From: an uncultured virus (IMG/VR IMGVR_UViG_3300032038_000017)
Lineage: Duplodnaviria > Heunggongvirae > Uroviricota > Caudoviricetes
Direction: 5' to 3' (one strand)
Length of the DNA stretch: 64,000 nucleotides
IMG/VR virus record: IMGVR_UViG_3300032038_000017
In this document: positions 31,265-58,498 of the stretch, one piece after another
How the letters are laid out: each line of letters starts with the position of its first letter
How positions within the stretch are numbered: position 1 is the first letter of the stretch
Translations under genes and position numbers: made by a program
The notes under the pieces: model-generated
The model's input: the letters and a program-made list of their open reading frames with translations, nothing else
What the model was told of the DNA's origin: nothing
Databases searched by the model: none

Positions 31265-31332
31265 AGCATTATCTCCTTATGCCTATAAAATTATAACCTT
31301 GTCCAAGTCTTACCCTGGACAAGGTCACTTGC

Positions 31333-31548
31333 TTAAAGACCTAAGATGGATTTTGCGTTTTCGATTTCACGATTGAAAGCGATTACGGAGTCTTTTTTAC
31401 CCCTAGTCTGAAACTTGATGTGTCCGTTCCAAGTACATTCGTACCAATGTCTTTCTGACATAGGCTTAAGACGAAGTTCTACATACTTTCCGTCTTTTGT
31501 TATGTACTGATACCAACCAGTGCCATTCATAAGTGCTTTTGTTGCCAT
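31333..31548 (-). CDS. hypothetical protein
   Basis: element and RBS. Confidence 0.8.
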   Translation of the reverse strand: MATKALMNGTGWYQYITKDGKYVELRLKPMSERHWYECTWNGHIKFQTRGKKDSVIAFNREIENAKSILGL

Positions 31549-31607
31549 AGATTAGCCCCCTTATGCCTATAAGATTATAACCTTACTCGGAATCTACCCT
31601 GCAAGGT

Positions 31608-31790
31608 TTATTCTTCGTCATCTTCATCGATATCTGAATAAGACTCTTCCCATTCGATATCTTCTGCAGGACCGAAATCTGCATCGCACATAAACTGCTC
31701 GGCTTTTTCGTGAGCCTCTTTCGCATTTTCTGCATCGACATAGACTTCAACTTTTGCCGTCATACGATAAGTAACACAATACTTTTTCAT
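31608..31790 (-). CDS. small acidic protein, similar to 33126..33326
   Basis: VEVYVDAENAKEAHEKA pattern. Confidence 0.8.
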   Translation of the reverse strand: MKKYCVTYRMTAKVEVYVDAENAKEAHEKAEQFMCDADFGPAEDIEWEESYSDIDEDDEE

Positions 31791-31826
31791 AGTGTTTTAT
31801 CTCCTTACACCTTAAAGATTATAACC

Positions 31827-32327
31827 TTACGCAACTTCTACCCCGTAAAAAGTTGCACGGATTTCGTCTGCTTTTTCGTTTGCCAATGTCCAATTATCTT
31901 TTCCCCTAGAAAAATCAGAAAAAATTGAGTTTATCGCATAGATTTCTACAAGGGTGTGCTTTGCATACAGTTCGTCTACAAAGTCCAGGCAACGCTCAAA
32001 AGCGTGTGGTTTTAAGTCTTTGTTAGGAAACTTCAATTCGCCAATGTCGTAAACATACACTGAAAGCAAATCTTCAAAGACTTCTGCCTTCTGCTTTTTA
32101 TGATTGTAATGAACGAACGCAAGAACCATCATTCCAGCACAAAGTTCTTCTTCGCTTACTTCGCTTTCCTCAATGTCCTTTTTTGACAACTGTGGTTTGA
32201 CGATGTTTTCCCAAACGGCTTTTCTTTCCTTGTCGTTGTCAAATGCAATATGCAACTTAATTCTATCATAGTCATTGCCGATTTTAAGGTCTGCAATTTC
32301 TACTTCGTCTATTTCTGAAATGTTCAT
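31827..32327 (-). CDS. hypothetical protein
   Basis: element and RBS; ends inside next element. Confidence 0.85.
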   Translation of the reverse strand: MNISEIDEVEIADLKIGNDYDRIKLHIAFDNDKERKAVWENIVKPQLSKKDIEESEVSEEELCAGMMVLAFVHYNHKKQKAEVFEDLLSVYVYDIGELKFPNKDLKPHAFERCLDFVDELYAKHTLVEIYAINSIFSDFSRGKDNWTLANEKADEIRATFYGVEVA

Positions 32328-32426
32328 TGTTTTCTCCTTATGCCATTATAATTATAACCTTACTTATTTCTTACCCTGTATAAATAAAAATAAAGGCAAG
32401 GTTTTTAAGCCTTGCCGTAGGGGGTC

Positions 32427-32846
32427 TTAGTCAAGAATCTTTACTAAAAAATTTCCACAAAGTTGTGGTATTTCAAAAGACAACTGTAAGTTGATTGCGT
32501 TCAAGATTCTGTCAAAAGCGTCATCTTCGTCAAGTTCGTAACTGTCGTCAAAGTAAACGGCTTGAATACCTTCCGTGCCACCATAGTAGCCGAACACCAA
32601 CTGAATTCCGTCATTGTCAAACAGTCTTACAGTAGTAATTCCGTATGTGGCGGCGGCTAGGTCATAAGCCTTTTCAAGTTCTTTTTCGCCCATTTTGCTT
32701 GCCTCAAGTGGTGTGGGTGTATCTTCTACCTTAAAGTCGATAGTTCCAAAGCCGTCAACTTTTCCGTCAAAGACTTCTTTTACACGAGCCACAACCAACT
32801 TTGCAAGGTCGGCTTTACTTTCGCAAAAAGCGTAATTTGATACCAT
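32427..32846 (-). CDS. hypothetical protein
   Basis: element and RBS. Confidence 0.85.
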   Translation of the reverse strand: MVSNYAFCESKADLAKLVVARVKEVFDGKVDGFGTIDFKVEDTPTPLEASKMGEKELEKAYDLAAATYGITTVRLFDNDGIQLVFGYYGGTEGIQAVYFDDSYELDEDDAFDRILNAINLQLSFEIPQLCGNFLVKILD

Positions 32847-32924
32847 TGTATTTCTCCTTATGCCTTACCTATTATAACCTTGCAGAATATTTACCCTGCA
32901 AGGTTATACGGCTAATCTTTCAAG

Positions 32925-33116
32925 TCACTTTCCAACGAAGTTCATTGTGCGACCTAACTTGCACTGATAGGCTCGCATTTCAACACTTCCTGTATTTTCG
33001 AATTCTGAAAGACATTCTTCTTTCAGTTCTTCTGCGGAAAGGCGAGTCTTAAATTGTTCTTTCGCCCACTTATTCCACCAAGACTTCAAACCGTTTAGTT
33101 TATCAGTTCTTTTCAT
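32925..33116 (-). CDS. hypothetical protein
   Basis: GAGGG RBS. Confidence 0.7.
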   Translation of the reverse strand: MKRTDKLNGLKSWWNKWAKEQFKTRLSAEELKEECLSEFENTGSVEMRAYQCKLGRTMNFVGK

Positions 33117-33125
33117 ACCAACCCT

Positions 33126-33326
33126 CTAGTAAGAATTGTCCCATTCTTCTGTAAGGTCATCATAGGTGTCGCCATCTTCGATTGAATCAATTTCAATGTA
33201 ATCTGCCGACATTTCCTTTTTAGCCTTTTCAGAATAAAGTTCCATTGCCTCAAACTTTTCTTTTGCCTCGGCTACTGAACTTGCATCAATGTAGACTTCG
33301 CTACGAAATGTTACTCTAACTGTCAT
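33126..33326 (-). CDS. small acidic protein, similar to 31608..31790
   Basis: SEVYIDASSVAEAKEKF pattern. Confidence 0.8.
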   Translation of the reverse strand: MTVRVTFRSEVYIDASSVAEAKEKFEAMELYSEKAKKEMSADYIEIDSIEDGDTYDDLTEEWDNSY

Positions 33327-33397
33327 TGTTTTATCCCCTATACTAACAACATTATAACCTTATCCAGTTGTTACCCTGAACAAGGTTATTTTTGTTT

Positions 33398-33700
33398 TTA
33401 GTTGATTCCACCTACCAACTTGCCTTCTTCCAACTTGTAGTAAAAAATTTCTTCGGACTGCAAGTATTTTTTCAAGCCGTCAATGTCGTCTGCCTTAACA
33501 AACTCTTCCATCTTATACAACTGCTCACGAGTAGGATAAAAAACTACTTGATTATCCAAATCACCACCAAGTTCACTGTTAGCCGTGATTGCGTCTTCCA
33601 ATTCTTCTTCTGCAAAGTAATTGTATGCACCGTCAATCATAACTTCCAATGTCAAGTAGTCATTGCCGTCAAAAGTAATACTTCCAATACCTTTATTCAT
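33398..33700 (-). CDS. hypothetical protein
   Basis: GGAG RBS before MNKG. Confidence 0.75.
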   Translation of the reverse strand: MNKGIGSITFDGNDYLTLEVMIDGAYNYFAEEELEDAITANSELGGDLDNQVVFYPTREQLYKMEEFVKADDIDGLKKYLQSEEIFYYKLEEGKLVGGIN

Positions 33701-33971
33701 ACCATTCTCCATTGTAAAGCAAAGGTTCTGTAATTGTATATCCACGCTCAAGTTCTTTTGCAAAAACTTCGTGCATATAATCATTCAAGAATCTTTCAAG
33801 TCTTTCCTTTTTGTCTTTTCTGTCTTGACCCATTTTCAATGTGCCGTAGTATTTTGACCATCGCCCCGTAGGTGTCTTTAATGGTACAAGAACTAACACT
33901 GTGTCTACTGCGGTACAAAAATAAGGTCTATGCTTTTTAGCGTATTCTGACTCGTGAAACTTTGTCATCAT
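33693..33971 (-). CDS. hypothetical protein
   Basis: element and RBS. Confidence 0.75.
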   Translation of the reverse strand: MMTKFHESEYAKKHRPYFCTAVDTVLVLVPLKTPTGRWSKYYGTLKMGQDRKDKKERLERFLNDYMHEVFAKELERGYTITEPLLYNGEWYE

Positions 33972-34033
33972 TTGCCCCCTATACCTAATAAATTATAACC
34001 TTGCAGAGTTTCTACCCTGCAAGGTTATTTGGC

Positions 34034-34453
34034 TTATGCGGCAAGGTCTGACATTTTCATGTATTCGTCTTTATGACTATTCCAACATTTCAAAAGGTAG
34101 TCCATCGCACTTTCAATGTCATCTTCGCTTTCAATGAAATAGTCTACATCGTAGACTTCGCCTTCTGTCGGTTCATAAGGCATAGTCCAGTCACAGTCAA
34201 AGTCACATTGCATAATGTTCTTATGCGACTGATAGGCAATCTTTGCACAAAGTTGATAACCGTCTTTGTGAAACGGTGTGTCATTGTCGCAACCGTTATC
34301 ACCGTCATAAGTCCAACCAAGAACGATAGCAAAGTCATTCTTTTCAGTTTGACCATCTGCAAGCCACCAAAAGTATGTACCCTCTTCACCACCTTTCAAA
34401 GACTGAACGGCATTACGGAAACCATCTTTGAACTCAGAAAGTTTTTTCGTCAT
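34034..34453 (-). CDS. hypothetical protein
   Basis: element and RBS. Confidence 0.85.
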   Translation of the reverse strand: MTKKLSEFKDGFRNAVQSLKGGEEGTYFWWLADGQTEKNDFAIVLGWTYDGDNGCDNDTPFHKDGYQLCAKIAYQSHKNIMQCDFDCDWTMPYEPTEGEVYDVDYFIESEDDIESAMDYLLKCWNSHKDEYMKMSDLAA

Positions 34454-34514
34454 AGTTTATCTCCTATACCTACAAGATTATAACCTTACGGAAATCTTAC
34501 CCTGTAATAGAATC

Positions 34515-34545
34515 AAAAAGGCTTGCAAATCAAATTGCAAGCCGT
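34515..34545 (-). terminator. Intrinsic terminator
   Basis: GGCTTGCAA..TTGCAAGCC hairpin followed by TTTTT on minus strand. Confidence 0.75.
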
Positions 34546-34550
34546 TCTTT

Positions 34551-35351
34551 TTACCATACCAAGCCAAGACTATCGTAAGCCTTGCCGATTTTTTCCTTTA
34601 ACTTGTCTTTAAGTTCGTCAAAAGTTTCATAAGCAAACTCATCCAAGTAAATGTAATGATTGCCAATGTCTGAACCGTCTGCCGAAGTCATACCCATAAG
34701 CCTTGCCCAACTACCAATACTTTCACGACCATAACTTAAATCGTCATTGAAGTAACTTTCAAGGCGAGCCAAGTGCTTGCCGTTCTTCAAGTCATTACGA
34801 TAATTGTCATTGTCATACAACTTCAACTGAACTCCGATAAAAGCTGGGGTGTCTGCATAGTAGTCGTGGTCAAAGTCGTTGAACTCATCCCAAAGTTTAT
34901 CGTGCTTAGGGTCAAGTGTAAACTTTTCATTTTTGTCAAACAAAGACGGTGTAGGGTCAACCTGATACGGTGTATAATTATCATACCAATTTTTGAACTC
35001 GTCAAAAGTCGGAAATTCTTTAAGCCATTCTGCATTTTCGTCTTTGCCTTTAATGTTCCAATCATAGAAATCATACAAAGCTGGCGAAAGCAGATTGTCC
35101 AAAATCAACTGTGCATTTTTGGCACGATTTTTCTGCTCTTCATTACCACCGTCTTTGAATGTCAATTCACTATCCCAATGTGGTGTGTAATTTGCAGAAA
35201 TAGTTACAAAGCCGTCTGTGAAGTTTATAAAGCCATCATAACTTGAACCGTCAGAAACATTGACATTCGGATAGAAGTCGTTGTTTTCAAACTTGTCGCC
35301 ATCAAGCATAATGTCCTTAAGCTCTTCCATAGCGTTCATTTCTTTAATCAT
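34551..35351 (-). CDS. acidic hypothetical protein
   Basis: element and RBS. Confidence 0.88.
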   Translation of the reverse strand: MIKEMNAMEELKDIMLDGDKFENNDFYPNVNVSDGSSYDGFINFTDGFVTISANYTPHWDSELTFKDGGNEEQKNRAKNAQLILDNLLSPALYDFYDWNIKGKDENAEWLKEFPTFDEFKNWYDNYTPYQVDPTPSLFDKNEKFTLDPKHDKLWDEFNDFDHDYYADTPAFIGVQLKLYDNDNYRNDLKNGKHLARLESYFNDDLSYGRESIGSWARLMGMTSADGSDIGNHYIYLDEFAYETFDELKDKLKEKIGKAYDSLGLVW

Positions 35352-35435
35352 TGTTTAAGTCCCCCTATTTGATTTCGTTTACACCTATAAAATTATAACC
35401 TTACAAGGTTGTTACCCTGCAAGGTTAAAATCTTT

Positions 35436-35744
35436 TTAGCCGTTGTATTCCAAGTCACAGTTGTTGTCGAAGTCAAACACCCAATCAACCCCCGACCGTT
35501 CCCATTCCCATTCCCAACCGTTCTTGTCGCAAGCATCGTCAAAAGCACACTCAACAGAACCGTCAGATTCGTCTGAATAGTTTGCGGCTTTTACTTCTTC
35601 CTTTACAGTGTCAAGTTTTACACCGTTAGGAACAAGAACTCGAATGTTACCATACTTGCGTGACCTTCCGTACTCATCTTCCATGTAAATGGAAACAACA
35701 TAGCGTGTGTGGTCTTTTGTTACAAGACCGTCTGATTTAATCAT
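35436..35744 (-). CDS. hypothetical protein
   Basis: start after element and RBS. Confidence 0.8.
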   Translation of the reverse strand: MIKSDGLVTKDHTRYVVSIYMEDEYGRSRKYGNIRVLVPNGVKLDTVKEEVKAANYSDESDGSVECAFDDACDKNGWEWEWERSGVDWVFDFDNNCDLEYNG

Positions 35745-35811
35745 AGTGTATCTCCTTATGTTAGATTTATTATAACCTTGCACAAGTTCTACCCTGTGCA
35801 AGAAGGTTGTG

Positions 35812-36051
35812 TTACCACCAATTTACTTCTTCAAATGTGGAGCCGTCATTCAGTTCGTTACGGTCGTCTGCAAGATAAACTTCAATGTGGTCGCTATCTT
35901 TTCCAATAGTTCTTTCGACATTGGCAACGATACCACGCACACGCTTGTCATCTGCAACACCAACTTGCAAATCTTCGCCGACAGTAGGAACTGTCATTAC
36001 TTTAACCTTGTAGACATTTCCTTTCCAATCAATTACCTTAATGCGAATCAT
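35812..36051 (-). CDS. hypothetical protein
   Basis: element and RBS. Confidence 0.8.
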   Translation of the reverse strand: MIRIKVIDWKGNVYKVKVMTVPTVGEDLQVGVADDKRVRGIVANVERTIGKDSDHIEVYLADDRNELNDGSTFEEVNWW

Positions 36052-36140
36052 AGATTATCTCCTTACAGTTTATAGTTTATAACCTTATAAGGTTTTTACC
36101 CTGGCAAACAAAAAAGGTGGCTTTTAAGCCACCCTTAATT

Positions 36141-36728
36141 TTAAGCACCAAGTCTGTCGAAACTTGCTTGAATGTAGTCCTTGCCGTTTACCATTTCATT
36201 CAGAACATCCCAACCGTTTGTTCCAATCCGATTCCAAGCACGGTCTAAATAGAACCCACGCATTGAATCAATCATGTCCAAAAGGTTTGCGATTGCAGAA
36301 AGTTTTTCCTTTACTTTTGTGCCGTCCATGTAACGGCAATTAGGAACGATTTCTGTCAAAAGGCAAGCACCAAGTCCGTATGAAATAATGTCCGACAAAT
36401 CCAAGTCGTCATCGTCATCCAAGCCACAAGACTGTCTTACACGGTTACGAACCGTTTCATTCATAGAACTTTCAGACGGAATAAGATAAAGGTCGATTGC
36501 TACCTTTCCTTTATAATCGTCATCCCCCGTAAGTTCATACAAATCTTCGACACGAACGACATACTTGTATTCAAAGTTAAGACCATCCTCTTCGTGCTTG
36601 TAAGTCTTTTTTGTTTCGTAGTATGTTTCAGTTGAGTAGTCAATGTAAAATGGAAACATTCTTTTGAATGACTTTGCTCTTCCGTTGATTGTAGCAACAT
36701 TATCTGCAAAAACCAATTTCTTAGACAT
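36141..36728 (-). CDS. hypothetical protein
   Basis: element and RBS. Confidence 0.88.
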   Translation of the reverse strand: MSKKLVFADNVATINGRAKSFKRMFPFYIDYSTETYYETKKTYKHEEDGLNFEYKYVVRVEDLYELTGDDDYKGKVAIDLYLIPSESSMNETVRNRVRQSCGLDDDDDLDLSDIISYGLGACLLTEIVPNCRYMDGTKVKEKLSAIANLLDMIDSMRGFYLDRAWNRIGTNGWDVLNEMVNGKDYIQASFDRLGA

Positions 36729-36788
36729 TGTTAAGCCCCCTTATGCCTATCTTATTATAACCATAGGGTATTTCTACCCTGTGGCTTT

Positions 36789-37145
36789 TTAGCAATAACG
36801 GATTCCGTCTAATGCGTGAAACTCAGTGTCAATATGTTCTGCTATGGCTTTTGCCATTTCTTTTGAAGTCTTGAAATTTTCAAAAGAAAAATGCTTGCTT
36901 TTGCGTGTTTTTTCAGTCGTGGCTTGCGACCAACCGTCACAAGTTTTTACTACAATGTCGTTTTCGTCTTTACGGATTGCATAAAAGAATGAAGTTGTCT
37001 GACCTTTATAGTCCCAAACTTGAACCATTCTTTTAGGCAAGTTGTCTGACATTACACTACCACCAAGTCGGCTTGTCAAATCCAAGCCTAAATTATTCAC
37101 TACTGTATAGTAAGATGACGCTTTCATAGTTTTCCTCACATCCAC
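36789..37145 (-). CDS. hypothetical protein
   Basis: ORF; start may be at MKASS. Confidence 0.75.
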   Translation of the reverse strand: MDVRKTMKASSYYTVVNNLGLDLTSRLGGSVMSDNLPKRMVQVWDYKGQTTSFFYAIRKDENDIVVKTCDGWSQATTEKTRKSKHFSFENFKTSKEMAKAIAEHIDTEFHALDGIRYC

Positions 37146-37148
37146 GAA

Positions 37149-37385
37149 TCAAAACGAATCGAATTCTTTTCTGCAATCACGCCAACCCTCTACATAGGCA
37201 TTGTTGATTGCTAACGCAACAGTCACCATCATTTCTACAAAATCGTGACATCCACTTGCTTTGAGGCTTTCACCATTTTTGTAGACGATTTCAAGATTTT
37301 TTCCATAGCGATTGATTGTATTTATTTCTGCTATTGGAAGTTCTACACTTGTTCCATAGTGTGTGTATGTAACTGTTTTCCTCAT
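37149..37385 (-). CDS. hypothetical protein
   Basis: element and RBS. Confidence 0.8.
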   Translation of the reverse strand: MRKTVTYTHYGTSVELPIAEINTINRYGKNLEIVYKNGESLKASGCHDFVEMMVTVALAINNAYVEGWRDCRKEFDSF

Positions 37386-37454
37386 TGTTTTATTCTCCTT
37401 ACCTTTAAAAAATTATAACCTTGCAAAGTATTTACCCTGCAAGGTTATTTTATT

Positions 37455-37838
37455 TTAGTCCAAAGATTTTACATAATCCAAGCCGTCTTTGACCCAAGCC
37501 TTTAATGGCTCAAGGTCGCCAACAACTTCAAATGTTTCTTCTTCAACATCACCGTCATAATCGTATGGGTGGGAAACTTCAATAAAAAATTTCCCATTAT
37601 CTGCTACAATTAACTCGGTGTCCCAAGAACCGTCTGGAGCGTGGTCATCCAAATCTTTCAAAAAATCTTCCTTAGACTTGAACATTCCACAGTCTGCAAA
37701 AAAAGAATCATAAACGGCTAACAGAAAATTATAGCCTTTTCCATAATCGCAGTTTTCGTCTAATGGAAGGATTTCCCTTTCGTCATAGTCAAAAAAGTTC
37801 TTACTGATAAAGTCTGCATTTACTTCAATCTTCTTCAT
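37455..37838 (-). CDS. acidic hypothetical protein
   Basis: AAGGA RBS before MKKIE. Confidence 0.8.
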   Translation of the reverse strand: MKKIEVNADFISKNFFDYDEREILPLDENCDYGKGYNFLLAVYDSFFADCGMFKSKEDFLKDLDDHAPDGSWDTELIVADNGKFFIEVSHPYDYDGDVEEETFEVVGDLEPLKAWVKDGLDYVKSLD

Positions 37839-38019
37839 CGAGTCCTTCCTTTTCGATTCCTTCGATTTTTTCAATGTAGAACTGACCAATCTGTGAACCG
37901 AAGTCCTTCAAGTCGGTTGACTGTGCGATAAGGTCATTACCTGCATATGCGTAGTATTTCTTTATACCGTTGCAATAATGCTCACACTGAATGTTTAACA
38001 AATCAGTAAACAAATCCAT
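37825..38019 (-). CDS. hypothetical protein
   Basis: element and RBS. Confidence 0.75.
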   Translation of the reverse strand: MDLFTDLLNIQCEHYCNGIKKYYAYAGNDLIAQSTDLKDFGSQIGQFYIEKIEGIEKEGLDEED

Positions 38020-38087
38020 AGTTTTTCTCCTATGCCATTTAAATTATAACCCTACAAGGTTTTTACCCCGTAAGGTCTTTCAGATTA

Positions 38088-38549
38088 TTAGAAGTCAAAC
38101 CAAGCGATTGCAGAATAGAAACCAAACTTGACACCAAAAAGGTCTGAAACCTTTTTAATAGCGTTCATAGTTGTTTCATTCTGAATCTTGTTAAGACTTT
38201 CCATTTCGTCACCATTCTCCAAAGGAATACCAATAAGGTAGTAGTCCTCATCGCCTGGTGTGAAATAGATAGATGTTTGCAAACCAAGTTTGTTTCCAAC
38301 AGAACCAACAATGTCACGACCACAAACAGAGTCCATGTAACCTTCGTTTTCGATAAGTTCGTCTACTGTTTCGTAGTCGTATTCGCCCTTCATACAGTCC
38401 ATAATAATTGAACCGTATTCTTCCGATTTCTGATAATCTTTGCAGAACTTCATAAGTTCGTCATTGCTGATACCGATTCCAAAGTAACTGATAGATTCGC
38501 ACTGATTCGACTGTGGCTCTACAAAAATCTGTGGAACTTTCTTTTCCAT
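38088..38549 (-). CDS. hypothetical protein
   Basis: element and RBS. Confidence 0.85.
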   Translation of the reverse strand: MEKKVPQIFVEPQSNQCESISYFGIGISNDELMKFCKDYQKSEEYGSIIMDCMKGEYDYETVDELIENEGYMDSVCGRDIVGSVGNKLGLQTSIYFTPGDEDYYLIGIPLENGDEMESLNKIQNETTMNAIKKVSDLFGVKFGFYSAIAWFDF

Positions 38550-38642
38550 TGTTCTAGTCTCCTTATGTCCCATTTATTATAACCTTGCAGTATACCTACC
38601 CTGCCAATAAAAAAGGTGGTCTATAAAAGACCACCAAGATTT

Positions 38643-38915
38643 TTACAGATAAACTTTTCCCAAAAGTTTTTCGCCGGCTCCACTCTCAACAAGCAAGCGT
38701 TTCAAGAACTTTCGCAACTTGTAACCGTTTCGGCTTTCGTAGTCGTCTGCGATTTCCCATTCTTCGTCATCCTTGTCGTAGTCTGGGTTTGAATCGTCAA
38801 AGTAGGTTTCAATGTCGCCATTGTCCATGTCCAAAGCAATCATTCTGATTGAACCGTCAAGAATCTTTGCAAGTTCTTCGTCAATTTCGATAGTTACTTT
38901 GCATTTTTCTGCCAT
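38643..38915 (-). CDS. acidic hypothetical protein
   Basis: element and RBS. Confidence 0.8.
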   Translation of the reverse strand: MAEKCKVTIEIDEELAKILDGSIRMIALDMDNGDIETYFDDSNPDYDKDDEEWEIADDYESRNGYKLRKFLKRLLVESGAGEKLLGKVYL

Positions 38916-38963
38916 AGGTTTTATCTCCTCTTATACTAGGGTTATTATAACCCTAGCGTATTG

Positions 38964-39458
38964 TTACCCTGTGTAAGATTCGTCAAGGTCGTCAAGTTTT
39001 TCTGCAAGTTCGTCATAGTTCAATTTGAAGAAAGAAAATTCTCCGTCATTGTCGCTATTTTCAAAACTTGATACACCAAGTTCGTTATTGATAAACCTTA
39101 CAAGTTTATCAACCAAGTAGTCTTGCATTTCTTTGTCTACATTTTTGTCCTTATTGACCATGTTCTCAGTAGGAAACATAATGCAAGCGTTATCAAGCAA
39201 TCCTGTTCCGTCTACAAGCACAAAATCGGCATGACCTTCTTCGCTTGAAGTAGCATTGCAAACACCGATAAACAAATGTTCGTCAATGTCAATTCTGCGT
39301 GGAAGTTCCTTAGACCAAAAATGCTTTGCAAGAACACCGTTAAGTTTGTCCAAAACATTTTCGACCGACAAAACATCATACATACGATAAAGTGTTTTTT
39401 TGTTTTTGTCGCTGTCTTGCAGACATTCGTGTTCCAAAAATCTTTCTTTGAAGTCCAT
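38964..39458 (-). CDS. hypothetical protein
   Basis: element and RBS; stop inside next element. Confidence 0.85.
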   Translation of the reverse strand: MDFKERFLEHECLQDSDKNKKTLYRMYDVLSVENVLDKLNGVLAKHFWSKELPRRIDIDEHLFIGVCNATSSEEGHADFVLVDGTGLLDNACIMFPTENMVNKDKNVDKEMQDYLVDKLVRFINNELGVSSFENSDNDGEFSFFKLNYDELAEKLDDLDESYTG

Positions 39459-51022: not shown

Positions 51023-51084
51023 AGTGTTTATCTCCTTATGTCTATTGTATTATAACCTTGCAGGGTGTCTACCCTGCAACCAAC

Positions 51085-51357
51085 TTACAAGTTTATACCG
51101 TCAAGGTATCTGCCGTTTTCCCATTCGTTCGGAATGTCAAACTTTTTCAATTCTGCCGATTCAAGAACACGGTCAGTGTATACGACAGTCAAATTGTTTG
51201 ACAAGCAAACGGAACGGATTATTCCAACGTCACTAGGAAGTGTCATTGGACCCAAACCGTGTTTAAGAATGTATTGGAAACCGTCATTTGCTTTCTTGCC
51301 ATAAGAAATACGATTCGGATTTCCACCACCCTTATTGTCAGAAAGAATCTTTATCAT
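51085..51357 (-). CDS. DarA C-terminal-like small protein (tentative)
   Basis: YILKHGLGPMTLP...YTDRVLESAELKKFDI resembles the Y...GPG..P...Y.R.L...E...Y/F pattern. Confidence 0.4.
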   Translation of the reverse strand: MIKILSDNKGGGNPNRISYGKKANDGFQYILKHGLGPMTLPSDVGIIRSVCLSNNLTVVYTDRVLESAELKKFDIPNEWENGRYLDGINL

Positions 51358-51451
51358 TGTAGTTATCTCCTTATGCCTATAGGATTATAACCTTACTAGG
51401 TGTTTACCCTGACATAAGAAAAAAGACGGCAGAAAAGCCGTCTTAATTGTT

Positions 51452-52423
51452 TTAGTTTCCGATAGGTGTATCGTCTCTAAGTGCAAGGGCAAGCGACATA
51501 TGCTCTTTATTGATTGTATCGCTTTCGTCAAAGTCTGCAAGAGTCCTAGCAACTTTTATAAGGCTTTTTCTTCCCCTTGTAGACATACCCGATACATCGC
51601 AAAATGCGTCAAGGTCTTTCAAAGCGTCATTGTTTAAATGGCAGAATCTTTCCATTTCAGATTCAGACAAGTCTGCATTAAGTTTACCTTGTCTTTCATA
51701 CTGAATTGTCTGCGCCCTTGCGATTTTATCACGCAATTCGTCAAGTGTAAAACTGAACTTGTCAGTCAGTTCTTCTTTGGTGTATTCTGCGTTAAAGTTG
51801 AAACGAATGTCTATACGGTCAAGAAGTGGTCCACTGAACTTTTTCCAATACAGTTCAATCGACCTTGCGGAACAAAGGCAAACCCTTTCCTTGTTGCCAT
51901 AGTTTCCACAAGGGCAAGAATTCACCGACATAGCCAACTGAAACTTTGCGGGGTACACTGTTGTTCTACCTGCACGGCAAAGCGTAATCTGATGGTTTTC
52001 AAGTGGAACACGCAACATTTGCAAGACCGAAGTTCTGAACTCCGCCGCCTCGTCAAGGAACAACATACCGTTGTGTGCAAGACTGATTTCACCAGGTCTG
52101 CAATTCGGACCGCCACCACACATTCCTTCAATAGAGGAAGTCTGATGTGGCATACGGAATGGTCTGTTGTCTGATTCGACAATGGTTGAAAGTCCAGCCA
52201 AATCGTAGATTCTTTTTACTGATTCCTTTTCGTCTGCCGTAAGTTTAGGCATAAGCAAAGGAAACTTAGTCATAAGCAAAGACCGACCACATCCAGGACT
52301 ACCAAAGTCCAAGATGTTGTGGCGACCAGCAACGGCTACTGTCATAGCAAACTTCATAGCGTTGTAGTTTCGACCTTTCAAGTTGTCAAAGTCTTTTGCG
52401 TCTGCTTTATCAAACTCTATCAT
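51452..52423 (-). CDS. YifB/ComM-family Mg-chelatase-like AAA+ ATPase lacking the N-terminal domain
   Basis: HNI..GSPGCGRS Walker A, RPFRMPHQTSS, PGEISLAHNGMLFLDE, CPCG..CLCS, SGPLLDRID, VARTLAD. Confidence 0.92.
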   Translation of the reverse strand: MIEFDKADAKDFDNLKGRNYNAMKFAMTVAVAGRHNILDFGSPGCGRSLLMTKFPLLMPKLTADEKESVKRIYDLAGLSTIVESDNRPFRMPHQTSSIEGMCGGGPNCRPGEISLAHNGMLFLDEAAEFRTSVLQMLRVPLENHQITLCRAGRTTVYPAKFQLAMSVNSCPCGNYGNKERVCLCSARSIELYWKKFSGPLLDRIDIRFNFNAEYTKEELTDKFSFTLDELRDKIARAQTIQYERQGKLNADLSESEMERFCHLNNDALKDLDAFCDVSGMSTRGRKSLIKVARTLADFDESDTINKEHMSLALALRDDTPIGN

Positions 52424-52522
52424 AGTTTAACTCCTTATACTTAATGTATTATAACCACACAACAATTTTACCCTGCAAGAAATTAAAAAGGGGCAACTTC
52501 TTTTCGTTGCCCCGTAATTTCG

Positions 52523-52822
52523 TTAGTACTCTGTGGAACCTCTGACTACTTCGCTGTTTGTTGTTTTTTCAAACTTTTCAAGAAACATATCACGGATTTC
52601 TGAAATGTCGTCACTGAAATCGTCCCAAGTTACTGTCTGCCCAAAGATTTCTCCGAGCAGCTTGAATGTTTCAAACACTTTGTCGCAAAGCTCGTCTTCA
52701 TAAGCCAAACAAGACCCACAAAGCAGATACTTCTTGCCTTCTACTTCAACAGTATGTGTTTCACACATTCCAAGTCCTTTAGCTTTTTCTACCAAAGCAG
52801 ACTTCAAATCTTTTAATGCCAT
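52523..52822 (-). CDS. hypothetical protein
   Basis: element and RBS. Confidence 0.8.
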   Translation of the reverse strand: MALKDLKSALVEKAKGLGMCETHTVEVEGKKYLLCGSCLAYEDELCDKVFETFKLLGEIFGQTVTWDDFSDDISEIRDMFLEKFEKTTNSEVVRGSTEY

Positions 52823-52881
52823 AGTTATCTCCTTTATAACTTACAGATTATAACTTTACGGGGCTTTTACCCCGTAGAAGT

Positions 52882-53262
52882 TTATTTTTCTGCAATAATC
52901 TGTTTGATTTCCAAGTCGGATTTTTTCTCGTCTAAAAGCAGATTGATTTTTTCAACATACTTTTCGTCAAGTGTATCCAAGTATCTCAAATGACAGTTCT
53001 GCCAAATGTCAAACAGTGTGTTATAAAGGTTGCTTTTCTTCAAAGCTGGGAAATCGTTTCCCAAGTCGTCTATACACTGACCACAGTAAACATAGTCAGT
53101 TTTTCGACCATTCCACAATCCACCACCTAATGCCACACGAAATCTGTCGTCGTCTTTGTCAAGGCGAATGTCTATCTCGGCTTCGTTAATTTTTCTGCCA
53201 CGACCCGAATAGTCCCACTTACCTAAACTGAATGACCTTTTCTTGTAGTCAAGTATCATCAT
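52882..53262 (-). CDS. hypothetical protein, paralog of the N-terminus of 55723..56349
   Basis: shared GK..Y.G..RKIN and WN.R.TD....GQCID. Confidence 0.85.
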   Translation of the reverse strand: MMILDYKKRSFSLGKWDYSGRGRKINEAEIDIRLDKDDDRFRVALGGGLWNGRKTDYVYCGQCIDDLGNDFPALKKSNLYNTLFDIWQNCHLRYLDTLDEKYVEKINLLLDEKKSDLEIKQIIAEK

Positions 53263-53332
53263 AGTTTAATATCCTTATGCTAATAAAATTATAACCTTGC
53301 ACAAGTTCTACCCTGCACAAGGTTATTGGATT

Positions 53333-53584
53333 TTACCAAACATGGCCAACGGAAAATTCGTCAAGACCTTCTTCCAAGATTTTCAAATCAACCTTGTCGG
53401 CATCAATGTCTGTTGCACGAATAAGGAACGAATTGTTGTCTGAATGGTACATAATGTCCAACTTGCCAGTCTCTTCGTTAAGAACGACATCAACATTGTC
53501 TGAACTGTATTCATTCAGTTCTTCTTCCACCATTGACACAATTCTGTTTGCCAATCTTTCAGTCATAGGATAAACTTTGCTCAT
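53333..53584 (-). CDS. hypothetical protein
   Basis: element and RBS. Confidence 0.8.
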   Translation of the reverse strand: MSKVYPMTERLANRIVSMVEEELNEYSSDNVDVVLNEETGKLDIMYHSDNNSFLIRATDIDADKVDLKILEEGLDEFSVGHVW

Positions 53585-53652
53585 AGTCTTTATCTCCTTA
53601 CACTATATAAATTATAACCTTGCAAGATGTCTACCCTGCAAGGTCATTTGTT

Positions 53653-54426
53653 TTAGTCCTCAAATATTTCCCAACCAAGTCGGTCTTGAATCTCTTTGGT
53701 CTTTGCCGTCATAAGAGAATCAATCTCTTCGTAGACTTCAAGCATCTTGTCAAGTTCAGTTTCAGAAGGCATACGGTGATGGAAAGTTTTGCACCATTCC
53801 TTGTCCAAGGCACTTGCACCGTTCCAACCAACTATGGCAAACATTTCAATACCAAAGTCGCCATACTTGTTGCAGAGTTCTTTAATCTGCCTTGCTTTCT
53901 GTGTTTTTGTGTCGTGGTCGTAGAAGTATTTCATTTCCAAGTCCCTCTTTTCTTCCAAGACATCGTGAAACCAAAGGTCTACGATACGACCATCCTCGTC
54001 ATAGTATGGGGTGTAATCACTTGAACCCCAAAGAGTTCTAGGGGTCTTAGAACCAAAGTCCGTATACTCACGACCACCAAATGAATAGTTTCCATAATGG
54101 TAATGGTCGTCTACAATGCCCCAAGGGTCGTTTCTTTTCAACCACGCTTTAAGCGAATTAACCTTTACACAGCCCCAACTGTCCTTTTTCAAGGTGTCCT
54201 TTTCTGCGTTGTATTTGTCCATAAGGTTGAGCATATAAGTAGCCCCACCTTCGTGTCCACGCAGAAGATAATTCTTGTCGATAAAGTCAATCTTTTCTTT
54301 TTCAGAAAGTTTTACTTCATCTTCGTAAATGTAGTATCTGCAAGCGTTAGGTTGTCTGTCGTTTACTCTGGCGATAGCGTCACACTTTTCCTTGTAATAC
54401 TTCAAATCAGAAACATTGTATTCCAT
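53653..54426 (-). CDS. hypothetical protein
   Basis: element and RBS. Confidence 0.88.
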   Translation of the reverse strand: MEYNVSDLKYYKEKCDAIARVNDRQPNACRYYIYEDEVKLSEKEKIDFIDKNYLLRGHEGGATYMLNLMDKYNAEKDTLKKDSWGCVKVNSLKAWLKRNDPWGIVDDHYHYGNYSFGGREYTDFGSKTPRTLWGSSDYTPYYDEDGRIVDLWFHDVLEEKRDLEMKYFYDHDTKTQKARQIKELCNKYGDFGIEMFAIVGWNGASALDKEWCKTFHHRMPSETELDKMLEVYEEIDSLMTAKTKEIQDRLGWEIFED

Positions 54427-54456
54427 AGTTATCTCCTTACAGATTACATTATAACC

Positions 54457-55140
54457 TTACAGTTTCTTTACCCTGCTGCCGTAAACTTTTGACCAATACT
54501 TACCCTTGAATTCCCCTTCGGTCATTTTCGCCTTGTTGTCTGTGTTTACGAACTTCATTCCAAGTTTTTCAAGTTCTGCCCTTAAAGCCTTTGTAACGAC
54601 ATTTGAAGGCAATACAACATCACTGTCATCAAACAATGCCTTGATAGACACGGCAACTTCATTGTCTGGAACAATGCGAATCGGCTTGTCCCACCTTGTA
54701 AGATAAACAAGTCTTGTGCCAGTCATAAGTCCACGAACCAATCCTGCCTTCCACTTCTTTATGCCTACTGAATCTTTTGCTTTTTCTGCCTTGTATGGAT
54801 TTTTGCTTTCCAATTCAGACATAGGGATTTCAACTTCCATAATAGCCAAGTTGTCACGGTCTTGTGCCGAACTGAATTGGTCATTAAGCATAAAGTTTGA
54901 ACTGTGAATGTATGGATTGTATTTTGCCTTAATCTTTTTGCCGTTTCCTTTGTCCAAAACAAAGTAGCCTTTTTCGTCTACCATAGACGGATTTTCTTCT
55001 GACTGTTCCCATACATTGAACTGAATAGGGTCACGAAGTTTTCCGTTTACCTTAGCACTTACGGCTGGATAAGGTTTTCCGTCAATAATCTGAACGGCTC
55101 TGTAAGCCTTCATAGTTTTTACATTATCTAAGTTAATCAT
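54457..55140 (-). CDS. hypothetical protein; YNPY.HSS..LNDQF domain recalled from large polyvalent phage proteins
   Basis: element and RBS; family recall unverified. Confidence 0.8.
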   Translation of the reverse strand: MINLDNVKTMKAYRAVQIIDGKPYPAVSAKVNGKLRDPIQFNVWEQSEENPSMVDEKGYFVLDKGNGKKIKAKYNPYIHSSNFMLNDQFSSAQDRDNLAIMEVEIPMSELESKNPYKAEKAKDSVGIKKWKAGLVRGLMTGTRLVYLTRWDKPIRIVPDNEVAVSIKALFDDSDVVLPSNVVTKALRAELEKLGMKFVNTDNKAKMTEGEFKGKYWSKVYGSRVKKL

Positions 55141-55232
55141 TGTTTTATCTCCTTATGTTTTATAGATTATAACCCTATAGGTGTTTTACCCCGTATAAAA
55201 TTAAAGCCGACCTATAGAAGTCGGCTTATTCT

Positions 55233-55631
55233 TTAGCAAGGCTTGATTTCTGCTTTGAAGAACGCTTTGATTTTGTTGTAGTAGTCGATTGCCTCAGTCA
55301 GTTCTGTAAAGAACTTGTCTGTCTGTGGAAATCCCTTACTTGCAACTGTTGCGTCTACTTCGTAAACAACCCCAATTTCTATGTCGTCATCGACACTTGC
55401 AAGAATTCCCATACTTGCGGCTGGCACAACGTCACCAATGCCAATCTGTGTCATTGTGATGTCGAATATACCGAATTCACCGTCTACTGAATAAGACGCT
55501 ACACGGTTTGCCATCCAATATTCGATATCCTTGTCGCCCTTTTTACGAGTAATGTAGCCTTCTTCACGAAGGTGTTCCATATCGCCTTTTTCAAGTGGAA
55601 TGAACTTCAACTGACCTCTTCTAACTTCCAT
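55233..55631 (-). CDS. hypothetical protein
   Basis: element and RBS. Confidence 0.82.
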   Translation of the reverse strand: MEVRRGQLKFIPLEKGDMEHLREEGYITRKKGDKDIEYWMANRVASYSVDGEFGIFDITMTQIGIGDVVPAASMGILASVDDDIEIGVVYEVDATVASKGFPQTDKFFTELTEAIDYYNKIKAFFKAEIKPC

Positions 55632-55722
55632 AGTTTAATCCCCTTATAGTTTTATTATTATAACCTTGTAGATTGTTTACCCTGAATAAAATTAAAGGTG
55701 GCTATGAAAGCCACCTACATTT

Positions 55723-56349
55723 TTACTTGTAAAGTTCGTCCTCTTTGTAAAGGAAGTCTACAGACAAATCCTTGTCAAGAATCGCACGAATCTTGTTCAA
55801 GTCTTTTTCGGGGATTGCACGATACAACCAACCGTGTCCGTATTTGTAAGGCTTTCCGTCTACTTCAACTTCATACAGTCCGTGTCTTTTCAAAAGTTCA
55901 CAATCAACAGAATAACTGTTCCAAGCAGAACCGTGCCAATTCTGCCATTCCTTGAAATAGTTATCACTGTAACCAATTTCGGCTTTGGCTTTTTCCCAAG
56001 CAGACTTGCGAAGTTCCTCACGGATTGTGTCTTTCTCGCTTGCAAAGTCTTTAAGACAGTTTTCTTGTTCAACAGTTCCGGCGTTCATGTCGTTCAAGTG
56101 ATACTTGCCCCACAAGTCTGCAATCAGATTGTAAAGACGGTCGTTCTTGAAGTATCTTTTGATACTGTCGATACACTGACCACCAGCAACACAATCCGTA
56201 TGGCGAGAGTTCCAAACAAAACCACAAACACTGAATGTTGGTTTGTCTGTATCTGCATTACGAAGTTCAATGTCCAATCTTACGGCATTGATTTTTCTGT
56301 TGCCATTGTAGGCAATCTTGCCAAAGTCAATCTTTCGTTTCAAATCCAT
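55723..56349 (-). CDS. hypothetical protein, paralog of 52882..53262
   Basis: element and RBS; HLNDM.AG and YKYGHGW. Confidence 0.88.
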   Translation of the reverse strand: MDLKRKIDFGKIAYNGNRKINAVRLDIELRNADTDKPTFSVCGFVWNSRHTDCVAGGQCIDSIKRYFKNDRLYNLIADLWGKYHLNDMNAGTVEQENCLKDFASEKDTIREELRKSAWEKAKAEIGYSDNYFKEWQNWHGSAWNSYSVDCELLKRHGLYEVEVDGKPYKYGHGWLYRAIPEKDLNKIRAILDKDLSVDFLYKEDELYK

Positions 56350-56403
56350 AGTAGTTATCTCCTTATGGCAAGTTTATTATAACCTTGCCAAATGCTTACC
56401 CTG

Positions 56404-56844
56404 TTAAACTTTCCAACCTTTTATGTCATCAAGATTGATTTTATACATACTTGCAAGTGTAGCAACATAAAAAGCCGTAAGCCGTACAAATACATAATCC
56501 GTAGCACTGCAAGCCACTGACCATTCACCGTCTTTGAACAAATAAAAGTATCCAATGTCCCAACCTTCTTTCAAGATTTTGTCAAGTTTCTTAGCCTTGT
56601 GGACTACTTCTTTTTGGTCGTCATACGGCTTGTCATCGTCAAATGTAGAACGGTCACCGATAGCAACAAGTTCACGAGCATTTCTGTCGTTGTATTCTTC
56701 TGCATAGTTTGGGTTTGTAGAATAACATTCTTCAAGGATTCTTGCACCTACCCCGTTTGGTCGAACATAGCCGTCATTATGAATGTAACTGTAAGTGTAA
56801 GTTCCGTCTTTCTCTGCGTAGATAACATAGCATCTTGTACTCAT
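56404..56844 (-). CDS. phage hypothetical protein (MSTR..YIHNDGY type)
   Basis: element and RBS. Confidence 0.85.
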   Translation of the reverse strand: MSTRCYVIYAEKDGTYTYSYIHNDGYVRPNGVGARILEECYSTNPNYAEEYNDRNARELVAIGDRSTFDDDKPYDDQKEVVHKAKKLDKILKEGWDIGYFYLFKDGEWSVACSATDYVFVRLTAFYVATLASMYKINLDDIKGWKV

Positions 56845-56963
56845 AGTTTAATCTCCTTATGCTCCTATAAATTATAACCTTTATGTTATACTACCCTGTA
56901 AGGATTATAACTTATAGGTTATAAAAAAATCGGCAACACTATTAAAGAATTGCCGATAAAAAA

Positions 56964-57314
56964 TTAAAAATTATTGTTGTTTTTCAAGGCTTCAACTGTC
57001 TTGTTAAAGACATCCAATGCCTTGTCAAAAGCGTCAGAAGGGAAGAACAAGTCGTGTCCTACACCTGCCGCGTTCATAATGGAAACAAGAAAGCCTTCCC
57101 TTGTTGAGACCATTACATCTATCGGCAACTGAACAATTGCGTTTTCTTCTGTTGCCGTCAGAACAACTGAATTGTAGATGTCACCATCAATCTGTTTCTT
57201 TTGGGGTGTATCACACCAAGAAAAAAGTGGACAAATAACACTAAGTCCTTCTACCTCACCCAGTTCTTTCCACTGTTTGCTTTCTTTTGCCGTAAAACTT
57301 CTAAGTTCTTTCAT
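56964..57314 (-). CDS. hypothetical protein
   Basis: start after element and RBS. Confidence 0.8.
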   Translation of the reverse strand: MKELRSFTAKESKQWKELGEVEGLSVICPLFSWCDTPQKKQIDGDIYNSVVLTATEENAIVQLPIDVMVSTREGFLVSIMNAAGVGHDLFFPSDAFDKALDVFNKTVEALKNNNNF

Positions 57315-57386
57315 AGTTTGGTTTCTCCTTATGTCTGTTGTATTATAACCTATCAAGGTATCTACCCTGATAGGCTTTTCAGTATT

Positions 57387-57932
57387 TTAGCAACCGTAAA
57401 CTTTCTTTGCGTAATGCAGATTTACACTGTAACCCTTGCTCCACAACTTTTCGTGTAATGTCTGTGGGTCATCGTATTCGTGTCTGTCAAAATATTCAAC
57501 ACCACGCTTTGTAAGTTTCTTTACTTCCCAACAGTTTGTTCCATCGTGGTGATAGCCGTGAATGTTGAATACACCTTTATCATCAAAGATTTTCATAGCG
57601 TCAACATTGCCCCAAGCCTTAGACAAGTCATTGTAATTCTTTACAACAAAACCACCACGATGCCGCCCATCCCAAAGTCCAGCAGAACCAACCAAGATAA
57701 AAATGCTACCGTCATTGAAGAAATTTTTAAGGTTTGACGCTTCTTCTTCCCAAGCAATTTCGTTACAGTCATAGATTTCTTGACTGATTTCTTCGTTAGA
57801 AGGCTCCCAATCTTTATCTTCCGGAAAGTCTTCCAAGTGTCGGTCAATACAATACTGCCTTGCATCATCCCAATCGTAGCCGTCATAATTATCAAAAATT
57901 ACAACTTCCGTTTTCTTCTGTTTGTTACTCAT
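57387..57932 (-). CDS. phage hypothetical protein (GLWDG..HHDGTN type)
   Basis: element and RBS. Confidence 0.88.
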   Translation of the reverse strand: MSNKQKKTEVVIFDNYDGYDWDDARQYCIDRHLEDFPEDKDWEPSNEEISQEIYDCNEIAWEEEASNLKNFFNDGSIFILVGSAGLWDGRHRGGFVVKNYNDLSKAWGNVDAMKIFDDKGVFNIHGYHHDGTNCWEVKKLTKRGVEYFDRHEYDDPQTLHEKLWSKGYSVNLHYAKKVYGC

Positions 57933-58028
57933 AGTAGTTTATCTCCTTATGCTTTACAGATTATAACCCTAAGGTATGTCTACCCTGTATAAATTAAAAA
58001 CGGACAGATTTCTCTGTCCGTATAACTT

Positions 58029-58433
58029 TTAGTCTTCTTCGTTTTCTGTTTCAAGATGACCAAAACTGAATACCAAAATCTGATTTGGTTCAATTCCAAC
58101 TTCTTTACCGTCGTAGTCAATGATTTTCTTTGTTTCGGAACAAAGGTTCTTTACATAGACATAATCGCTGAAATACTTGTCAAAGTATGTTTCGTGGCGG
58201 AAGTCAACCGATTCTTCGATGAAGTACGGTTTATTGAACTCGCCTTCGTATTCAAAGTTATTGGCATTGAACTCTTCCACTTCACGAACAAGGTCGTCTT
58301 TATTGTTGACTCTTCCGAGTCTTTCAATAACTTCTGGTCCGTGTCCGTTCTTTGTGTTGTACATGTCACCATTGAACTCGTATGAGGTGAACATACCCTC
58401 ATCTGTGATAATCGCAAACTTTCCTCTTGTCAT
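58029..58433 (-). CDS. hypothetical protein
   Basis: element and RBS. Confidence 0.85.
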   Translation of the reverse strand: MTRGKFAIITDEGMFTSYEFNGDMYNTKNGHGPEVIERLGRVNNKDDLVREVEEFNANNFEYEGEFNKPYFIEESVDFRHETYFDKYFSDYVYVKNLCSETKKIIDYDGKEVGIEPNQILVFSFGHLETENEED

Positions 58434-58498
58434 AGCAACTCCTTATGGTATCTGTATTATAACCATACAAGGCATTTACCCCGTATGGTTTTACATGC

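Follow-up and report, generated by a model that had tools for sequence, protein, structure and literature searches.

This study concerns a stretch of 64,000 nucleotides (hereafter referred to as the window) from an uncultured virus, IMG/VR record IMGVR_UViG_3300032038_000017, which holds a one-directional array of small minus-strand genes (GC content ~38%; plus-strand GC skew steadily negative). Almost every small gene in this array is preceded by a copy of one short promoter cassette, and in a subset of the copies the DNA upstream of the promoter is complementary to the promoter's own spacer and -10 region and forms a strong hairpin with it. Judged by its sequence, this hairpin is probably an intrinsic terminator for the upstream gene that is fused with the promoter of the next one. 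The carrier of the array is here called an uncultured phage-like element.

The sequence TTATAACC occurs 109 times in the window, compared with 2.8 +/- 1.8 times in shuffled sequences, and 107 of the occurrences are on the plus strand. Read on the minus strand, all 107 belong to a single cassette that consists of the box (A/G)GG(G/A)TA, a spacer, and GGTTATAA. The complete order is C(A/G)GGGTA, a spacer of N12/11, GGTTATAAT, ~8 nt, (G)CATAAGGAGAT, and ATG. The box reads AGGGTA in 89 copies, GGGGTA in 16, and AGGATA in 2, and the spacer has 12 nt in 98 copies (the N12 copies) and 11 nt in 9. In most copies, GGTTATAA is directly followed by a T and a leader of ~8 nt, and most copies also have the Shine-Dalgarno sequence ATAAGGAGAT followed by ATG. 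Because nearly all copies have a perfect TATAAT as their -10 box, the conserved box is centred near -31, and a strong ribosome site lies 20-30 nt downstream, we read this layout as a promoter with a leader. The upstream box, CAGGGTA, is not TTGACA-like, and a scan of the window for the sigma-70 consensus skips the cassettes (48 sites versus 50.5 +/- 8.2 expected, which is no excess). The copy at 11049 directly precedes the genes for tRNA-Gln and tRNA-Met and has no ribosome site, which argues for a transcriptional rather than a translational role. From these features, we infer that the cassette is a promoter. Six copies (6406, 7582, 11364, 11739, 22924, and 42538) are not followed by an open reading frame (ORF) of >=25 codons within 60 nt, and these may drive small RNAs or very short peptides.

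Copies were scored as having a strong hairpin when the duplex between flank and spacer had an energy of -13.5 kcal/mol or lower. With this strict cut-off, 22 of the 107 copies have a strong hairpin, whereas a lenient score yields 36 of the 98 N12 copies; the remaining copies have no stem or merely a short inner stem. In the hairpin copies, the flanking DNA that precedes the box is reverse-complementary to the copy's own spacer and -10 region. Folding of the 22 strongest copies (from -24 to the end of GGTTATAA) gives a single helix of 11-16 pairs with an energy of -15.2 to -23.6 kcal/mol and, in 15 of the 22, a loop of 4 nt, making these hairpins as stable as the separate terminators of the array (-10 to -23 kcal/mol). 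The palindrome spans roughly -42 to -9 of the promoter, and its register shifts by 1-3 nt between copies. Strong stems are unevenly distributed: of the 24 copies that reach -12 kcal/mol or lower, 21 sit among the 50 copies in 31-59 kb and 3 among the 57 copies in 1-31 kb. Hairpins of this type had been noticed in a first-pass annotation of the window, and its examples at 32873-32908, 31296-31325, 45393-45427, 40938-40961, and 58461-58490 are all present in the sequence, while the further copies that it named (33995, 37414, 39860, 49545, and 53291) fold as strong hairpins. It described the spacer as being mirrored on the far side of a TACCC core. The mirror image is real, but the core is not a plain loop, as the GGGT of the box pairs with an ACCY in the spacer in the minimum-energy fold and is part of the stem. 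Coordinates of the hairpins and other features are given in Table 1.

Table 1. Promoter cassettes, fused hairpins, terminators, and genes in the window (energies in kcal/mol)
Feature	Coordinates	Strand	Stem and loop	Energy	Tail and context
Array of 107 promoter cassettes	1734..58830	-			one ahead of almost every small gene
Fused hairpin	31293..31328	-	15 pairs, 6-nt loop	-23.6	tail AATTTTATAGGC; upstream ORF ends 16 nt before box
Fused hairpin	32873..32908	-	16 pairs, 4-nt loop	-20.4	tail ATAGGTAAGGCA, no T-run
Fused hairpin	33354..33389	-	14 pairs incl. G.U, 8-nt loop	-17.7	
Fused hairpin	33995..34028	-	15 pairs, 4-nt loop	-21.7	tail AATTTATTAGGT
Fused hairpin	35396..35427	-	14 pairs, 4-nt loop	-18.9	tail TAATTTTATAGG
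Fused hairpin	35776..35803	-	11 pairs	-15.7	
Fused hairpin	37415..37448	-	15 pairs, 4-nt loop	-19.0	tail AATTTTTTAAAG
Fused hairpin	38048..38077	-	13 pairs, 4-nt loop	-16.9	
Fused hairpin	39858..39887	-	13 pairs, 4-nt loop	-17.0	
Fused hairpin	45393..45427	-	15 pairs, 4-nt loop	-17.5	
Fused hairpin	46240..46279	-	16 pairs, 6-nt loop	-21.7	
Fused hairpin	47196..47225	-	13 pairs, 4-nt loop	-19.3	
Fused hairpin	47599..47629	-	14 pairs, 3-nt loop	-16.6	
Fused hairpin	48019..48048	-	13 pairs, AAAA loop	-19.9	tail ATAATTTTTTAA
Fused hairpin	48699..48728	-	13 pairs, 4-nt loop	-16.6	
Fused hairpin	49545..49578	-	13 pairs, one internal mismatch	-15.2	tail TAATTTTTTAAA
Fused hairpin	53291..53326	-	15 pairs incl. 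two G.U	-20.0	
Fused hairpin	53614..53647	-	15 pairs, 4-nt loop	-19.3	
Fused hairpin	57347..57376	-	13 pairs, 4-nt loop	-17.8	
Fused hairpin	58461..58490	-	13 pairs, 4-nt loop	-17.1	
Fused hairpin	26633..26667	-	15 pairs	-18.0	tail AATTTTATAGGT; beyond the range of the first-pass annotation
Fused hairpin	6410..6440	-	12 pairs	-16.0	beyond the range of the first-pass annotation
Intermediate stem, GGGGTA box variant	40938..40961	-	7 pairs, CTTACGG/CCGTAAG	-12.5 (duplex)	
Stand-alone terminator	34520..34543	-	GC-rich stem		followed by TTTTTGATTC; closely precedes promoter 34478, which has a weak stem of its own
Stand-alone terminator	38615..38635	-			upstream of promoter 38577
tRNA-Gln(TTG)	10961-11034	-			directly downstream of promoter copy 11049
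tRNA-Met(CAT)	10599-10675	-			downstream of promoter copy 11049
C5 cytosine DNA methylase	23306-24193	-			
Short SSB	39896-40228	-			
ComM/Mg-chelatase-like ATPase	51452-52423	-			usual N-terminal part missing
Sole plus-strand promoter copy	59690..59714	+			marks array end; precedes ORF 59739-60818

The relation between the hairpins and the array's own terminators was assessed by calling a stand-alone terminator wherever a hairpin of -10 kcal/mol or lower with a T-rich tail occurred within 30 nt of the box. The 107 junctions then fall into three classes, with a separate GC-rich terminator and T-run at 40, a strong fused hairpin at 22, and neither at 45. Separate terminator and strong hairpin exclude each other: a stand-alone terminator is present at 0 of the 22 strong hairpin copies, as opposed to 40 of the 85 others (Fisher's test, 9.4e-6). 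On related contigs from metagenomes, for which counts here and below are among the matches listed, the figures are 0 of 27 and 42 of 87 (5e-7), although many of these 114 cassettes are orthologs of window copies and do not make up an independent sample. The first-pass annotation had proposed that the full hairpin occurs where the upstream ORF stops close by, and this ORF indeed ends 11-27 nt before the box in 22 of 22 hairpin copies; it was also correct about the copies at 34478, 38577, 40255, and 55658, which lie behind a stand-alone terminator and have weak promoter stems. Stop codon and box are separated by a median of 16 nt in hairpin copies, 48.5 nt in copies behind a separate terminator, and 8.5 nt in those with neither, where the stop codon abuts the promoter and transcription presumably reads through. 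The TAA within the arm sequence ATAACC was considered as the upstream stop codon and rejected, the real stop usually being found a few nt further upstream.

Nature provides an exchange of one form for the other. The gene downstream of the window hairpin at 33354..33389 follows a stand-alone terminator and a non-pairing spacer in the related locus L170. This swap indicates that hairpin and separate terminator are interchangeable in nature, and that the spacer travels with the upstream flank.

The first-pass annotation claimed that the variable spacer covaries with the flank to preserve the hairpin. Since the register of the palindrome is not fixed, covariation between aligned columns gives a weak signal, and we used a register-free test in which the duplex between each copy's own upstream flank and its own spacer and -10 region was compared with duplexes obtained after swapping partners between copies. 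The copies' own duplexes have a mean energy of -8.75 kcal/mol, compared with -7.09 kcal/mol for swapped partners (z = -8.5; 0 of 10,000 permutations came near), and 18 own pairs are at -14 kcal/mol or lower when 5.6 are expected. For the variable spacer alone, the same comparison yields z = -5.6. Two conserved motifs, AACCTTG in the upstream flank and CAAGGTT at the -10 box, account for part of the mirror image, and that part is not covariation. Because of these motifs, the swap was also carried out within a class of 37 copies that were picked solely by a CCTT/CTTG motif in the 5' flank, and here own partners again outperform swapped ones (z = -5.7; 0 of 5000 permutations). By fixed columns, which is the R-scape-like route, 58.8% of cells are paired in the 98 N12 copies versus 57.8 +/- 0.3 in controls (1/500), and the covariation score is 0.152 versus 0.139 (2/500), which is the best among slid controls. 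The clearest covarying pair joins the A/G at position 1 of the box with spacer position 8, which is C in 9 of 16 G-copies versus 17 of 82 A-copies (Fisher's test, 0.01). Hence, the claimed covariation holds copy by copy, whereas column by column it is faint.

Related sequences allow the same question to be put to orthologous hairpins. A scan of metagenomes yielded at least 151 stretches with the motif and at least 51 loci with two or more cassettes, and these loci are 67-99% identical to parts of the window. A pattern scan of IMG/VR gave 7 single matches, which we take as chance, and in one genome each of 185,579 species the motif was found in 91 stretches, nearly all of them single, which is chance level. 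The exception consists of two short contigs of one Bacillota metagenome-assembled genome (MAG) that are 95-96% identical to the window and that hold all 10 motif matches of this MAG. In 15 ortholog pairs, 18 changes in the stem keep a pair, 16 of them single and 2 double, and 2 gain one, whereas 14 lose a pair, mostly the outermost or innermost. Of the 29 single changes, 16 keep the pair, as compared with about a quarter or less by our reckoning for a Watson-Crick pair. In the ortholog of 35776..35803 in locus L109, the stem is kept by a two-sided change (A-T to C-G) and three wobble changes.

Two observations concern shorter or more distant pairing. Spacer positions 5-7 hold pyrimidines, and in 76-78% of the 98 N12 copies, including copies behind separate terminators, these could pair with the box's invariant GGG; such a short inner stem may matter for the promoter itself. 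Furthermore, an extra, inverted TTATAACC is found at 56868-56925 (minus strand), upstream of promoter 56872, and provides this promoter with a second, longer-range inverted repeat of the -10 region.

The DNA behind the hairpins resembles the tail of an intrinsic terminator in part. Directly after GGTTATAA, and within 6 nt of the -10 box, 12 of 22 hairpin copies have a TTT run versus 12 of 86 others (p = 1.7e-4, by a criterion that was picked after inspecting the data), and the number of Ts in the 9 nt after the -10 box is 4.05 in hairpin copies versus 3.36 (p = 0.048). A generic terminator scan returned 45 sites, compared with 11 +/- 3 expected, and has seven fused hairpins in 31-51 kb among its top matches. 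As in known intrinsic terminators, a stable hairpin stands directly behind the stop codon and is followed by an A/U-rich stretch; the tail differs in that UAUAAU and a variable T-run take the place of a clean U-tract, and compared with the array's own separate terminators, the stems are longer and contain more A/U. Internal mismatches in the stems, when read on the mRNA-sense strand, are G.T rather than A.C at a ratio of 13:2 in the window and 18:0 in relatives. By these ratios, the strand that tolerates wobbles, a point raised in the first-pass annotation, would be the mRNA-sense strand. However, a control with swapped partners is biased as well (77:7), because many wobbles face the invariant GGTTAT, and we therefore dropped the ratio as clean proof of RNA structure and keep it as weak support.

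Taken as a terminator fused with a promoter, the element could work as follows. Polymerase arriving from the upstream gene would transcribe the -35-like box, spacer, and -10 box of the next promoter, and the nascent RNA would form a hairpin of 11-16 pairs that in most copies is capped by a tetraloop. The stretch behind the hairpin, rich in A/U (UAUAAU and, in about half of the copies, also UUU), would then release the transcript. The identical duplex DNA would act as the promoter of the next gene, with a start ~7 nt past the -10 box. In the fused form, the stop codon lies a median of 16 nt from the box instead of 48.5 nt, and the DNA between the end of the stop codon and the -10 box is a near-perfect palindrome. 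Termination by the hairpin, as well as the positions at which transcripts start and end, is what we infer from the DNA itself.

Several observations weigh against a fused terminator. There is no classic U-tract; 10 of the 22 hairpin copies have no TTT run and their tails are A/U-rich, and the longest stem (32873-32908) is followed by AUAGGUAAGG, with no T-run. The wobble bias of the swapped control has been mentioned. The exclusion of separate terminators is partly geometric, since a T-tract and the 5' arm of the hairpin cannot share the same 12 nt; its biological content is that the coding region reaches the hairpin and leaves no room for another stop signal. At 45 of 107 junctions there is neither a terminator nor a strong hairpin, and termination is thus not obligatory. 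Fixed-column covariation is weak. Hairpin copies share a tighter consensus (a aaaaCCTTGCAA spacer) and cluster in 31-59 kb, and common descent of these cassettes may explain part of the pattern. Finally, parts of the stretch occur in six RNA-labelled runs, three of which were examined; these consist of contigs, in which the depth of the element is as flat as in a DNA run and reveals neither expression nor the starts or ends of transcripts.

An alternative that we regard as unlikely is that the hairpin is an RNA 3' stability element or processing site, which would define the ends of single-gene messages after cleavage of read-through transcripts and would not terminate transcription, for instance as an exonuclease stop or as the target of a double-strand RNase. 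A position right behind the stop codon, sense-strand wobbles, and the tails that have no T-run would all suit such an element, and so would the exclusion of true terminators, which protect 3' ends too. The enrichment of T-runs after the -10 box would, however, be superfluous for a stability element, and the combination of 11-16 stem pairs, a tetraloop, and a tail rich in A/U is the usual pattern of a terminator. Typical RNase III sites have longer stems than this, which also counts against processing.

Comparison with the window shows that many of the related loci are mosaics with joints at the cassettes. At least 37 distinct cassettes match the window on one side only or match different window cassettes on their two sides, and at least 33 are collinear. 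Of 42 junction sides that could be judged, 19 lie at the -10 box and 20 outside the core, and the other 3 are found upstream of the box and retain the spacer; contig breaks at cassettes are possibly assembly effects of the repeat. Insertions and deletions between relatives and the window also fall at cassettes. Contigs of other samples, one of them a DNA run, join cassettes that are distant in the window (for example, 32344 to 49541 and 40288 to 47575). Junctions occur at non-hairpin copies too (such as 10492 and 9880), and for this reason recombination at short conserved blocks fits the data and a structure-specific recombinase is not called for. In two relatives, L141 (compared with window 43750) and L128 (compared with window 8126), an extra ~180-215 bp sits precisely at a cassette, which amounts to a small gain or loss of a single gene.

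These junctions raise a further possibility, to which we give rather little credence, namely that of a promoter-delimited cassette system in which units are exchanged preferentially at the invariant 11-nt AAGGTTATAAT, with the palindromic copies serving as exchange points or being read by a factor. Each unit would then consist of leader, ORF, stop signal, -35-like box, and spacer, bounded by AAGGTTATAAT. The palindromes would be extruded as hairpins during replication or transcription, and a dedicated phage factor would read them and recognise CAGGGTA too. If true, this would amount to integron-like shuffling without an integrase, acting on >100 self-expressed genes.

Quite improbable, in our view, is a palindrome that has no selected function and arose by inverted copying or template switching at the promoter, followed by recombinational spread of one subfamily. 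This would agree with the tighter consensus and clustering of the hairpin copies and with the recombination of cassettes at promoters. Yet the arms vary between copies while matching within each, also within the motif-defined class, orthologs keep pairs above the neutral reckoning (16 of 29 versus about a quarter or less), and G.T mismatches are far above A.C; links with missing terminators and with T-runs would not be expected either.

Along with the fused terminator-promoter, which fits the results on terminator exclusion, upstream ORF ends, T-runs, wobbles, and the terminator scan, the first-pass annotation had offered an attC-like reading, in which a cruciform or folded single strand is bound by a recombinase and each gene is a mobile cassette. 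This second reading has fared badly and is very unlikely. The likeness to attC sites of integrons is that variable, imperfect inverted repeats with arm ends AAC...GTT separate single-gene cassettes, that the gene content of the array varies between relatives, which gain, lose, and reorder single genes exactly at cassettes, and that the invariant -10 box accounts for 19 of the 42 junction sides that could be judged. In integrons, the tyrosine recombinase IntI and attI adjoin the array, and the cassettes are mostly promoterless and expressed from a common promoter. Here, each cassette has a promoter-like sequence of its own, and a scan of 112 ORFs of the window turned up neither an integrase nor any other recombinase family. 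Core sites of attC are conserved as RYYYAAC ... GTTRRRY and cross over at one fixed position, whereas the core found here, GTTATAA, does not fit GTTRRRY. Junctions are seen at several cassette positions and at non-hairpin copies, and no strand asymmetry would be expected of a cruciform, whereas the wobbles found here lie on one strand.

A role of the hairpin in promoter recognition or control, either in extruded form as for the virion RNA polymerase of phage N4 or as an inverted repeat for a dimeric regulator, is equally hard to credit: the promoter overlaps an inverted repeat as in N4, CAGGGTA is not a host-type hexamer, and a special factor may read the motif, given that its frequency in the 185,579 reference genomes is that of chance and that the MAG with the related contigs has no copy elsewhere, but only 22-36 of 107 copies have the hairpin while all share the boxes (85 of 107 have the same boxes and no strong hairpin), so that it is not needed for promoter identity, the arms vary with compensation, which a sequence-reading protein would disallow, and wobbles favour the non-template strand. 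Hairpins of the N4 type have 5-7 pairs and a 3-nt loop, are essential and few, and are read on the template strand, and the stems and loops found here are unlike them in size, the hairpin being long, optional, and wobble-tolerant on the non-template strand.

A fused terminator and promoter does have a precedent. By analogy with the published accounts, the layout is that of the promoter-early stem-loop (PeSL) cassettes, a compact kind of stop-and-restart signal known from the T4-type phages RB49/phi1, T4/PST, and KVP40/nt-1 (Arbiol et al. 2010, PMC2839356; Comeau et al. 2014, PMC4122927). The PeSL order is given as stop codon, stem-loop, promoter, Shine-Dalgarno sequence, and ATG, with the stem-loop placed between -35 and -10 or overlapping -10 and with G-T pairs in the stems (PMC2839356). 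Termination by PeSL cassettes was demonstrated using lacZ fusions, and related T4-type phages exchange genes at them (PMC2839356; PMC4122927). The likeness comprises a short composite intergenic motif that is repeated many times in regions of small orphan genes, the succession from the upstream stop codon through stem-loop and promoter to Shine-Dalgarno sequence and ATG, a stem-loop with G-T pairs that lies within or overlaps the promoter, and insertions, deletions, and gene swaps at the motifs between relatives. A GGGG...CCCC inner stem is shared as well, and is found here in the GGGGTA variant.

The two systems also differ. In the window, TATAAT is perfect while the -35-like box CAGGGTA is non-canonical, the stem mirrors the promoter's own spacer and -10 region rather than being a fixed motif, and the fused hairpin is optional, occurring in about a fifth to a third of copies. 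Copies are far more numerous here (107 in 59 kb); RB49/phi1 carry 31-33 PeSL copies. No T4-like core gene was found in the 64-kb window, and the host is probably a gut Gram-positive, as judged from the strong AAGGAG sites and the two related contigs in a Bacillota MAG, and not a proteobacterium. In the literature searched, we found nothing beyond passing mentions of PeSL-type cassettes outside T4-like phages.

As to the element itself, runs labelled as bovine gut metagenome share up to 0.77 of sampled words from 31-41 kb. Two of 100 small ORFs have Pfam matches at E <= 0.001 (SSB and CLN5); the SSB match is the only one above the curated Pfam cut-off, and the CLN5 match lies below its own. Larger ORFs include the ComM/Mg-chelatase-like ATPase and the C5 DNA methylase, and apart from these two and SSB, no recognisable protein is encoded in the ~59 kb, which otherwise hold orphan genes. 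PHROG searches gave family matches for a few ORFs. The window has no near DNA match in 50,697 phage records; a 421-aa protein has no match in phage records, and the ComM/Mg-chelatase-like protein matches unannotated 'Bacteriophage sp.' contigs with <=41% identity.

Two further regions deserve mention. At 58800-59740, the last minus-strand cassette (58794) and the sole plus-strand cassette (59690) diverge, and GC skew flattens in the ~0.9 kb between them; this may be a boundary or origin-like region. At 2915-3058 (minus strand), the full Rfam tRNA model fits a tRNA-like gene with 35.9 bits, while ARAGORN makes no call; the gene has ~59 nt in place of the anticodon loop and a long variable region, and it may be an intron-containing or interrupted tRNA.

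A terminator fused with the next promoter in this array would extend the composite promoter/terminator cassette from T4-type phages of Gram-negative hosts to an unrelated, uncultured gut element, in which a different promoter is used and the cassette is present at very high density, with >100 self-contained single-gene units. Gene junctions in the array take three forms, with a separate terminator, with a terminator that would be folded into the promoter, or with none, and this natural series is suited for tests of what terminators need by way of hairpin and tail and of how promoters and terminators can share bases. Beyond this, the upstream box CAGGGTA hints at a special recognition factor, and the cassettes mark the sites where the element gains and loses its orphan genes.

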